A stretch of DNA of 64,000 bases from Octopus vulgaris (taxonomy: Eukaryota), in assembly GCA_951406725.2 (NCBI GenBank), contig OX597818.1, forward strand, positions 49,352,001 through 49,416,000, written 5' to 3'. The notes under the pieces are model-generated. The model saw only the letters and a list, made by a program, of their open reading frames with translations, had not been told where the DNA came from and searched no databases. Each line of letters begins with the position of its first letter. Position 1 is the stretch's first letter. Positions 3,044-63,272 of the stretch are shown piece by piece. The translations under genes were made by a program, and so were the position numbers.

Positions 3044-3492
3044 GGATCTTTTCGGTTTGAACGGCAGTTTTTTCTAGCGGTGTCATATGAAATTGTCACC
3101 CATAATTATGACCCTAGTATCAATCTATTGCATTTCAATCTGTTTTAGAGTTAGTTAGGGTTAGTTAGAGCTTGGGTTAGGGTTAGGGTTAGGGGTGGAG
3201 GGAAGGGTATCTTTTTTTCTTCAGAAATGTAAATAAACCCAATCTGTTTCTTAAACGAGGGACATATTCATACGGCACAGAATGTTTTTTAACTCAATAA
3301 ACGTCATTGATTGGTTGAAATTGCAGAAATTGAAGAAAAAAAACAACAAATATCTTACAAACTATAGAATTTTCTCAATAAAGCCAATAGAAAAAGATGT
3401 TTTATAATCACATTCTATCAGTATACGAAGTTTAAAATTTTTTAGTTACATGGAAATTATGTTAAAAACTGCCGTTCAAACCGAAAAGATCC
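3044..3492 (+). mobile_element. Merlin-like MITE copy 1 with internal TTAGGG array
   Basis: ~29-bp TIR GGATCTTTTCGGTTTGAACGGCAGTTTTT; 8-bp TSD atttcttc (3036-3043 / 3493-3500). Confidence 0.9.
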
Positions 3493-40335: not shown

Positions 40336-40747
40336 GGATCTTTTCAGTTTGAACGGCAGTTTTTTGTAGCGGTGTCATATGAAATTGTCACCCATAATTA
40401 TGACCCTAGTATCGATCTATTACATTTCAATCTGTTTTAGGGTTAGGGGTGGAGAGAAGGATATCTTTTTTTTCTTCAGAAATGTAAATAAACCCAATCT
40501 GTTTCTTAAACGAGGGACATATTCATACGACACAGAATGTTTTCACCTCAATAGATGTCATTGATTGGTTGAAATTGCAGAAATTGAAGAAAAAAACCAA
40601 CAAATATCTTACAAACCATAGAATTTTCTCAATAAAGCCAAGAGAAAAAGATGTTTTATAAACACATTCTACCAGTATACAAAGTTTAAAAGTGTTTAAT
40701 TACGTGGAAATTATTTAAAAAAACTGCTGTTCAAACCGAAAAGATCC
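40336..40747 (+). mobile_element. Merlin-like MITE copy 2
   Basis: Same TIRs; 8-bp TSD tatcattg. Confidence 0.9.
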
Positions 40748-50020: not shown

Positions 50021-51524
50021 CTATAGACAATTGTATACATGTTTCAGTATGAGGTATCAAAGATTGTGAAATTTAGAGCATAGTGACTAAACCTTTGTGC
50101 TATTTAAAGGGTCAAGGCTGCTGAGTTGAATGAACTCTAGCTTTATCATTATTACTTATTTTTATCAACTCTAGAAAACTCAAGTTTCCACTTGTAATGT
50201 ATTGGAACACTATTGTACTGCACTGCATAAGTAATTGTAAAGTTCTCTACCTGGTATTTTCCTATTATAATAAGATATTTACATATGATCATGGATTTAA
50301 TAACTCCCACCCTCAGTGTATGTCAGACAGGTGGTGTTTAGTTTGTGTGGCTGGTGACTCTGCAATGATTTAATTGTTGTATACCTGCATAAGAATAGCA
50401 GAATTGATGTGGGGAAAGGAAGGTGCAAGAGACATTACTGATCCTCAGGTATATCAAAGGTAATAGAGTATCGTTTGGGGAGTGCTCCATCTGCACACAC
50501 TTGAGTGATCGGGCAGGAAGCTTCCAAATCCAAGAAATAAGAGATTGGTGTAGACTGCACTCAACATTACTTTTACTAAAATTTTCTGTGGTAAGAAACT
50601 ATTAGGGAATTTTACTGGAGAATAAGTCTCTAGTTGACCTACCTCTTCAGAAACCACACAGGTAATCACTAAAGAGAGAGAAAGAGAAAGTGTGTGTGTG
50701 TGTATTTGAAGGCGATGGTTGTTTACATGTTCGGTTTCTATTACCTTGGGCATGTTGAAAGTGAATAGTAGTTGACAAGGTCATAGAGTTTGACATTTTT
50801 TTGAGATGGGATGCAATGTGTCTTTTACTTGTTTCAGTCTTTAGATTGTGGCCATGCTGGGGCACCACCTTGAATTTTAGTCAAATGAACCAACCCCAGT
50901 ACTTTAAAAAAAAAGTTTTTTTTAAGCTTTGCACTTATTCTATCAGTCTTTTGCTGAACTGCTGCAAGGTTACAGAGATGTAGACACACCAACACAGATT
51001 GTCAAGCTGTGAGGGGTGGGCACGTGCATGCAGGCACTTCCCCCCCTCCACTGCTTGATACACACACACAGATGATGGGCTTCCTTCAGTTTCCATCTAC
51101 GAAATCCACTCACAAGGTTTTGGTTAGCCCAAGGCTGTAGCAGAAGACACTCGTTCAAGATGCTAAGTAGGACTGAACCTAGAACCATGTGGTTGGGAAG
51201 CAAGCTTCTTACCACACTGCTACTCCTGCACCTGTAGTGTATTTCCAAAGATTAAAATAGCCTTCTGTTGACCAAGAGAGATTGAAGAGTTTAGTGAGTA
51301 ATATCTGTGAATGTAATCTTTCGGTTTGATGGAAAGGATGCCATCCAAGCCAATCATCTGTGTTGGCATGGTCGGAATTTACCTTCAAGCTCCATTTTTC
51401 CCCTTTTTGCTTCATAAAATAGAAAAATGGATTTGATAATGAAAAATGTAACTCACTAATAAAAAACAGTCCTTTAATCATGTGTATAGTGAACGGTATA
51501 TTAATTACAACTTAAGTCAGACTA

Positions 51525-52261
51525 CAGTTCTATATTTAAGAGATGAGAAATTATTTACATTTGACGGATATTTGACCTCATCTTGTTTGTTGTTAACACA
51601 ATGTTTCGGCTGATATACCCTCCAGCTTTCATATGGCATAATGGTTAAGAGCGCGGGCTACTAACCCCAATATTCCGTGTTCGATTCCAGGCAGTGACCT
51701 GAATAATAACAATAATAATATCGAAAAATACCTTAGGAATGAGAACCCAGATTCGAAATTTCCCCAAGACACCTGTAGAAGGCTGGAGGGTATATCAGCC
51801 AAAACATTGTGTTAACAAGATGAGGGCAAATATACGTCAAATATAAATAATGTAAGGATCTTTTCAGTTTGAACGGCAGTTTTTTAAAATAATTTCCACG
51901 TAACTAAACACTTTTAAACTTCGTATACTGGTAGAATGTGTTTATAAAACATTTTTTTCTCTTGGCTTTGAGAAAATTTTATAGTTTGAAGATATTTGTT
52001 GTTTTTTTTCTGCAATTTCAACCAATCAATGACGTCTATTGAGGTGAAAACATTCTGTGCCGTATGAATATGTCCCTCGTTTAAAAAACAGATTGGGTTT
52101 ATTTATATTTGTGAAGAAAAAAAGATACTCTTCCCCCCAACCCTAACCCAGATTGAAATGCAATAGATCGATACTAGGGTCATAATTATGGGTGACAATT
52201 TCATATGACATCGCTAGAAAAAACTGCCGTTCAAACCGAAAAGATCCTAATGTAAATAATG
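51525..52261 (+). mobile_element. Penelope-like hairpin retroelement with a tRNA-like segment and a degenerate hammerhead motif; MITE nested in its tail
   Basis: Inverted arms ~51551-51632 and ~51778-51850; tRNA-like ~51633-51699; 13-bp direct repeat ttaagtcagacta flanks the whole unit. Confidence 0.6.
51856..52247 (-). mobile_element. Merlin-like MITE copy 3
   Basis: Same TIRs, opposite orientation; 8-bp TSD taatgtaa. Confidence 0.9.
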
Positions 52262-53128
52262 TTAAGTCAGACTAAGACTGTAGTAAGTAAAATTTAAAGA
52301 TTTAGTAGTCTGTGTATAGTAAAATCTTCCGTGGTAGCAATTATAGGAATGTTTCTAAAACTTGTTGAGTTTATTAAATAGTATTTACCCCCACTTCATC
52401 ACTCTATCGCTCATATCTTTCATCGTGAAATCTGTGTGATGAGAAATTGCATTGGCTCTGCTCATATTCAGTATCTGCCTTCTGTCACCTTCCACTGCTG
52501 TCTAACCTTCACCTTCACCTCGTGTGACTCTTAACTAACATACCATTCTTACCATCATCATCTGTTGCTATCCATCCATCACTCACTCACTCAGTCTCCC
52601 TCTCTCTTTCTCTGCGAAGTATTTTTATTTCTACCCTGTTCTGCTGCTTCTGCTGTTTTCTCTTCAACCTTCTACCAACAGCTAATGTGTAACTTATCAC
52701 TCTGCCTCTCTCTCTTACCATCACCCATCTCTGTTGCTATCCAACTCTCTCTTACTATGACATTCTCATTTGCTTTCCCATCAAGCTACTCATGCTGTGT
52801 CTTCCTCTTTCTCTCCTCCTTTGCTACCTCTTACCGTCCCATTACTCTTTACTTTGTCACACTCTGGATCATCAAGCAAAAAAGAATGTCTTTGTCTTGC
52901 AGAGGACAAGGCACCTTTCTATTGTTGGTGTCACAATAAAATGCACCTGATGTCCTGTAATGTGGCTGGTTTTTGAATTAATACATATGCCATGATAAAT
53001 CAACCATATACTCTGTAAAGTGGTTAATATCAGAAAGGGCATTCATCTGCAGAAACATTGCTCAGAATGGGAAAATGCAAATGAGGCATAGTTTTCCAAC
53101 CCACTTAGGAAGAAGTAACTTCATATAA

Positions 53129-62856: not shown

Positions 62857-63272
62857 GGATCTTTTCGGTTTGAACGGCAGTTTTTAACATAATTTCTAGG
62901 TAACTAAAAAATTTTAAACTTCGTATACTGGTAGAATGTGTTTATAAAACATCTTTTTCTCTTGGCTTTATTGAGAAAATACTATAGTTTGTAAGATATT
63001 TGTTGTTGTTTTTTCTTCAATTTCTGCAATTTCAACCAATCAGTGATGTCTATTGAGTTAAAAAGCATTCTGTGCCATATGAATGTCCCTCGTTTAAGAA
63101 ACAGATTGGGTTTATTTACATTTGTGAAGAAAAAAAGATACCCTTCCCCCCACCCCTAACCCTAACCCTAAAAGAGATTGAAATGCAATAGATCGATTCT
63201 AGGGTCATAATTATGAGTGACAATTTCATATGACACCGCTAGAAAAAACTGCCGTTCAAACCAAAAAGATCC
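62857..63272 (-). mobile_element. Merlin-like MITE copy 4
   Basis: Same TIRs; 8-bp TSD caagtttt; internal ccctaa x3. An extra inverted end fragment lies at 63328-63386. Confidence 0.9.

Follow-up and report, generated by a model that had tools for sequence, protein, structure and literature searches.

A dead head-to-head Poseidon-type Penelope pLTR in octopus, from a family with tRNA-derived A and B boxes that are a likely Pol III promoter

We analyzed a 64,000-nt stretch of the Octopus vulgaris genome (the window) in which positions 51525-52261 had been predicted to form a single tRNA-headed, Penelope-like element with a minimal hammerhead ribozyme. Our preferred reading, held with moderate confidence, is that a Poseidon-type Penelope element left a dead copy of its pLTR here, inserted head to head and truncated at the 5' end, that a MITE lies in the 3' end of this copy, and that the A and B boxes of its family are likely a Pol III promoter. 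The locus bears on two general matters, the origin of Penelope transcripts and the birth of SINEs. Should the pLTR act as a Pol III promoter, one sequence would serve as both retrotransposon and SINE, the source of a SINE-like population mobilized by a Penelope RT would be identified, and an animal might naturally make a long Pol III transcript that codes for protein. If Pol II drives the family, the locus is an ordinary dead Penelope stub.

Layout of the insertion

The prediction of a target-duplication-flanked element with inverted arms agrees with the 13-bp direct repeat that we found at both sides and with the presence of the arms (51550-51630 against 51778-51851); the tRNA-like boxes, the ACT loop and the hammerhead-like motif were likewise found where they had been placed. 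The segment is not one unit, however, but a composite, because positions 51856-52247 belong to a separate MITE that carries an 8-bp duplication of its own. The features are as follows.

51512-51524: left target-site duplication of the Penelope insertion, 13 bp, paired with 52262-52274
51525-51632, minus strand: inverted 5'-truncated pLTR arm with the 3' half of the hammerhead, the AC-rich 3' end and the Penelope tail of ~30 bp
about 51525-51554, minus strand: Penelope tail on the inverted arm
51630-51701, plus strand: tRNA-derived segment of the pLTR, beginning at +3, from the alignment to tRNA-Arg genes
51634-51644, plus strand: A box (A-box-like)
51658-51664, plus strand: anticodon-like loop, CT-ACT-AA
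51679-51688, plus strand: B box
51703-51719, plus strand: (AAT)n spacer, of different length between copies
51739-51741, plus strand: ATG that opens the ORF of the element where a pLTR precedes the ORF, from natural junction copies
51768-51813, plus strand: minimal type I hammerhead, degenerate in the window copy
51814-51855, plus strand: AC-rich 3' terminus of the main pLTR arm, which lacks the tail
51856-52247: unrelated Merlin-like MITE, 392 bp, with terminal inverted repeats and its own 8-bp duplication
52256-52261, plus strand: final 6 bases of the Penelope arm, separated from the rest of it by the MITE, from comparison with the family ends
52262-52274: right target-site duplication of the Penelope insertion, 13 bp, paired with 51512-51524

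A single element spanning all 737 bp was ruled out by the genome matches and by the separate 8-bp duplication. All 39 other best genome matches to the whole 737 bp cover only about positions 305-736 of the query, and MITE candidates number in the thousands genome-wide. The MITE has GG...CC termini, terminal inverted repeats of ~30 bp and, at this locus, an 8-bp duplication at 51848-51855 and 52248-52255; such a duplication was found in 15 of 22 copies with both ends, and at 4 of 4 in the window. Because 51856-52247 has its own termini, its own 8-bp duplication and separate copies, we read it as a MITE lodged within the 3' end of an element of ~337 bp. The criteria for Merlin include GG termini and an 8-9-bp duplication (PMC8101967, in part), and the segment fits a Merlin-like MITE, resembling Merlin-type MITEs in its GG termini, ~30-bp terminal inverted repeats and 8-bp duplication (PMC8101967, in part). 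Further copies lie in the window at 3044-3492, 40336-40747 and 62857-63272, each with a perfect 8-bp duplication. A contig of a second organism matches the window copy from 52249 onward only and does not bridge the MITE site; absence of the MITE at the locus in this organism is weakly suggested.

The remaining ~337 bp are a 5'-inverted truncated pLTR insertion of an autonomous Poseidon-type Penelope element. Judged by its sequence, the window locus is a standard head-to-head truncated Penelope insertion, about 90% identical to the consensus, with the minus-strand arm (51525-51632) matching family consensus positions 2540-2656 at 89%. The suspicion that this copy is catalytically dead was justified: core A6 and G12 and helix III G16.2 are changed (CTGTAGA...AAAA-CA-TT, against CTGATGA...GAAA-CG-TT in the family). 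The RNA-seq reads gave no sign of expression of the window copy. The locus does combine two elements, as a one-off composite or chance arrangement would, but the head-hammerhead-tail block is common to thousands of copies, which refutes this explanation and leaves it with almost no probability. Other high-copy short repeats, several of them arranged as inverted pairs, crowd the window, at 50821-51240 and in many other places.

Linkage of the block to a Penelope ORF

On sequence evidence, the tRNA-like/hammerhead block is the pLTR of a Poseidon-type Penelope element, because it is linked to the ORF of the element on both sides, is traversed by a read-through frame and shows the insertion signatures of Penelope. 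A first look at the family gave 5,861 candidates, 40 of which were scored. In some copies the sequence before the tRNA-like part is shared as well, and it leads upstream into an endonuclease-like and then an RT frame. The RT partner sharing the terminus that the original prediction proposed to search for was found in this way: 29 of 30 loci with the endonuclease end of the ORF continue into the tRNA-like/(AAT)n/hammerhead/tail block (about 26 are independent; five loci are one duplicated insertion). At these five (L149, L153, L154, L162 and L166, on contig C31) a single Penelope insertion recurs together with its flanks, the result of a recent segmental duplication. On the other side, a sense pLTR lies directly before the ORF at 6 of 30 loci sampled by ORF start, and there are 69 exact tail-ORF junctions.

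The script-built consensus has 2,656 nt and a 785-codon open frame, and copies average 94% identity. The tRNA-like part begins 30 nt behind the stop codon of this Penelope ORF, so it is not, as had been supposed, the head of a stand-alone element. A natural frame matched RVT_1 in Pfam (E 5.5e-10), and the ORF protein, with 985 homologues that include proteins of 60-72% identity, is 40% identical over 473 aa to an Anolis protein. Endonuclease motifs (YSIPC...YKGET...R..EH) were recognized by inspection, and PF01541 was found on 2 of the 120 listed homologues; Pfam gave no endonuclease (GIY-YIG) score on either of the two natural frames tried. At natural junctions a frame runs from the pLTR ATG through the hammerhead and tail into the ORF, as in Poseidon_Ac (PMC11167929, in part), and the ATG is in frame in 10 of the 18 decayed junction copies that keep it. 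A length-variable repeat before the tail, at the 3' end of the pLTR, has a 9-nt unit, and changes in its copy number keep the ORF frame.

The Penelope-type mobilization with inverted termini that had been proposed is borne out by the insertions themselves. An inverted arm is present in 43 of 70 family insertions, and there are two 3' ends. Among 57 inverted-arm insertions, 53 have the tail on one arm only and 37 have duplications of at least 7 nt (the breakpoint set comprises 70 arms from 69 loci, with L188 left out). An inverted arm and a one-sided tail are Penelope signatures (PMC8557442; PMC11167929 and PMC3846280, both in part).

A young GIY-YIG family with a 781-codon frame, found by PF01541, was considered as the partner and rejected, as it shared no end with the block in 30 loci and 16 longer stretches; the sole exception in this comparison was one unrelated nearby copy. 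This second Penelope-like family (L121 1745-4087, G000:C16, and L122-L126) has many copies, an intact 781-codon RT plus GIY-YIG frame and an extra long upstream frame, and a hammerhead scan of it found no standard sense-strand hammerhead.

The hammerhead of the octopus family is intact in many copies. Reversing CpG decay in the window arms had yielded a hypothetical functional core, and this reconstruction was correct: the 45-nt intact core has 904 exact genomic copies, and its reversed control has 0. Checking the family for CUGANGA/GAAA with stems I and II likewise revealed the intact core, and the family thus carries the proposed Penelope hammerhead, of the minimal type I and with a palindromic helix III. 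It is intact in 14 of 70 pLTR arms picked without regard to the motif, and losses concentrate at CpG (0.77 vs 0.95-0.97). We saw no structural difference from minimal PLE hammerheads (PMC4209133, in part), with which it shares an unpaired base before stem II, G10.1-C11.1, a 5-bp helix I, a 6-bp helix II and a palindromic CG at 15.2/16.2; the family has U at position 17. Of 27 homologous elements in other organisms, 15 show this layout with paired stems that differ. Rfam left both the hammerhead and the tRNA-like part uncalled and gave only sub-threshold miRNA-type matches. The predicted cut site falls inside the pLTR, 70 nt past the ATG and 84 nt short of the end of the tail, and therefore the hammerhead does not set the insertion ends. 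The hammerhead of Poseidon_Ac is dispensable in vitro (PMC11167929, in part). In the octopus family, no RNA ends were seen at the predicted cut site in RNA-seq libraries, which are of a kind that would hardly show them.

The tRNA-derived head and transcription of the family

The head of the pLTR aligns colinearly over 70 nt with octopus tRNA-Arg genes (score 64, against a maximum of 48 in 2000 shuffles), above all shuffles and with the A and B boxes kept, in agreement with the predicted tRNA origin. A serine identity, suggested by the ACT loop, found no support, as the best matches were tRNA-Arg in a sample that covered only some isotypes and held no Ser gene. ARAGORN found nothing in 23 homologous loci, a result that is uninformative because it also misses the octopus family. 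Behind 27 homologous ORFs the A/B-box pattern had 0 matches, though of the family's own decayed copies it recovers only 8 of 30. In inserted copies the A and B boxes are kept at 0.935 and 0.965, compared with 0.93-0.95 elsewhere; conservation no better than in the rest is as expected for neutral decay and gives Pol III no support.

Many copies begin at the position that corresponds to the first nucleotide of the tRNA (+1). Of 37 copies reaching that far, 24 stop within -12 to +12 of tRNA +1, and the stop hazard at +1 is 0.026 per nt compared with 0.001-0.007 elsewhere (p 7e-10). Similarly, 21 of 30 head-sampled matches, which include three near-duplicate pairs, start within -7 to +7, and exact 16-mers drop from 6,712 inside the head to 1,189 immediately before it, a 5.6-fold genome-wide step. 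Among 64 mapped junction arms between tail and ORF, all 6 that reach the head stop at -17 to +3; of these 6, no more than 2 retain ORF sequence of at least 100 nt. The same +1 carries a hairpin of -10.8 kcal/mol, a value matched by 4 of 1313 windows, and palindromes have been described at the 5' ends of Adineta pLTRs (PMC3846280, in part); the pile-up alone is therefore no proof of a start site.

This hairpin is the main ground for an alternative that we consider unlikely but worth weighing, in which the family is an ordinary Pol II-driven Penelope, the tRNA-like piece is a passenger captured once, and the palindrome at +1 stops or folds back the RT. Adineta pLTRs combine such 5' palindromes with TATA/Inr-like motifs (PMC3846280, in part), and transcription starts internally in the pLTR in Penelope and Chlamys (PMC8557442). 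The cloverleaf of the octopus head is lost, ARAGORN made no call for the tRNA-like part and neither did Rfam, and at locus L239 a pLTR before the ORF reads through +1, extending at least 80 nt upstream. On the other hand, a stronger hairpin inside the ORF does not stop copies, the pile-up being absent there (2 of 18 copies, a small set), and the left arm of the +1 hairpin resembles a small inverted copy of the first 10 nt of the head, so the hairpin may itself have arisen from an RNA terminus at +1. The Pol II alternative also leaves unexplained the distribution of T4 runs.

A T4 run is the Pol III terminator. The sense strand of the 2,656-nt unit has 0 T4 runs, and TTTT is the most depleted of the 256 4-mers. 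Thirty copies contain 29 T4 runs where 121 are expected (0.24 of expectation), near the level from decay of a T4-free source, whereas 69 homologous coding regions (those of 80 loci with at least 1 kb matched) contain 513 against 340 expected (1.5). Codon-aware nulls gave P values for the depletion from 0.001 to 0.18, with 0.053 against the element's own codon usage and 0.18 against the usage of one control. Four of the 69 homologues are also T4-free, all with under 1.5 kb matched, and TTT is lower in 2 of the 69. This T-run signal is cheap to screen in other genomes.

The starts at +1 together with the T4 depletion give indirect support to the Pol III drive of the original prediction and suggest that the family is likely transcribed by Pol III, possibly including the coding RNA. 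Under this Pol III reading, transcription would start at about tRNA +1 in any intact pLTR. Because the sense strand is without a T4 terminator, the polymerase would pass the hammerhead and the tail and, where copies lie in tandem, continue into the ORF. A ~260-nt RNA would then come from any pLTR and would contain the cis signal, which the RT copies through internal initiation; by analogy with PMC11167929 (in part), this RNA would carry the RT-binding and initiation region. Copying with a fold-back at the 5' end would produce many short inverted copies, and the large excess of pLTR-only SINE-like copies would be accounted for because any pLTR yields copyable RNA. Cleavage by the hammerhead would require a dimer or the help of protein. 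A bolder version, which we put forward tentatively and at less than even confidence, is an autonomous retrotransposon wholly transcribed by Pol III, which captured a tRNA promoter, purged all T4 from 2.66 kb, makes its RT-endonuclease from uncapped RNA and has a built-in SINE in each pLTR. Pol III RNAs are uncapped, and translation is therefore hard to explain under the Pol III reading.

Three unstranded RNA-seq runs, read on a family copy, showed no pile of starts or ends and no discrete transcript. Between 88 and 90% of family-aligned reads run on into unlike sequence, and family RNA is present mostly as parts of other transcripts. The depth shows an about two-fold step at +1, which mirrors copy number and is uninformative on polymerase or cleavage.

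Short copies and comparison with known systems

The original prediction interpreted the locus as a SINE/retrozyme hybrid, which we weighed as an independent non-autonomous tRNA-headed family with its own masters that is moved in trans by a Penelope RT. Copies starting at +1 are indeed in large excess, most copies are without any ORF (only 10 of 70 reach at least 40 nt upstream), and 22 of 30 head matches continue past the hammerhead. However, the whole block is the autonomous element's own pLTR, and the consensus is identical for 36 short copies starting at +1 and 35 ORF-linked pLTRs, with no diagnostic difference and with a polymorphism at +63 common to both. Nor did we see long tandem arrays or circular joints: the 30 loci read held only partial tandems, and there was no unit-length circular joint among the RNA-seq joints listed. 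The idea of a separate family is thus largely refuted and very improbable, and the short copies show no sign in their sequences of an independent master.

The octopus family shares with non-LTR retrozymes short sequences that bear a hammerhead and either derive from PLE pLTRs or are moved by them (PMC7229834; bioRxiv 10.64898/2026.07.22.740005; both in part). Metazoan non-LTR retrozymes differ (PMC7229834, in part), as multimeric arrays, circular RNA and an independent master were not seen in the octopus family. In the available parts of the main text of both sources, Pol III is unmentioned.

The element resembles Poseidon_Ac of the green anole (PMC11167929, in part) and Adineta Pen2a (PMC3846280, in part) in several respects. 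The ORF encodes an RT and a putative C-terminal endonuclease, the latter recognized here from motifs and homologues; the pLTR overlaps the ORF start, with the hammerhead inside the first codons; and there are two 3' ends ~30 nt apart (the tail), an inverted 5' pLTR and a short AT-rich duplication. Unlike both, as far as the available parts of these sources describe them, the octopus pLTR starts with tRNA-derived A/B boxes and the unit is without T4 runs; Pen2a has TATA/Inr-like motifs (PMC3846280, in part). The SINE-like Schistosoma repeats Sm-alpha and Sj-alpha offer a parallel, as dispersed retroposons in which a promoter of the Pol III type precedes a hammerhead (PMC6765202, in part). These are non-coding repeats with canonical hammerheads and tandem arrays (PMC6765202, in part), whereas in octopus the promoter-like head and the minimal hammerhead belong to the own pLTR of a protein-coding element.

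Penelope anatomy, minimal hammerheads and the schistosome repeats that join Pol III promoters to hammerheads are already known. For the tRNA-derived A/B boxes at the start of the pLTR, the copies piling up at +1 and the T4-free 2,656-nt unit we found no paper, and regard them as new in this sense. The literature searched held no report of a tRNA-derived or Pol III promoter in a pLTR, while repeat libraries (Repbase/Dfam) may already have the family; a tRNA-headed pLTR is not described in the available parts of two cephalopod repeat papers (PMC13282606, PMC8967140).

The octopus ATG lies 35 nt before the hammerhead core, whereas that of the Poseidon-clade comparison elements, in the partial sources, is at stem II. 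The homologue P0007, 52% identical, has MKAEDMDRPKRR at its start, as if a hammerhead were translated in frame from the AUG inside the core; the octopus family reaches the same PKR from the upstream ATG.
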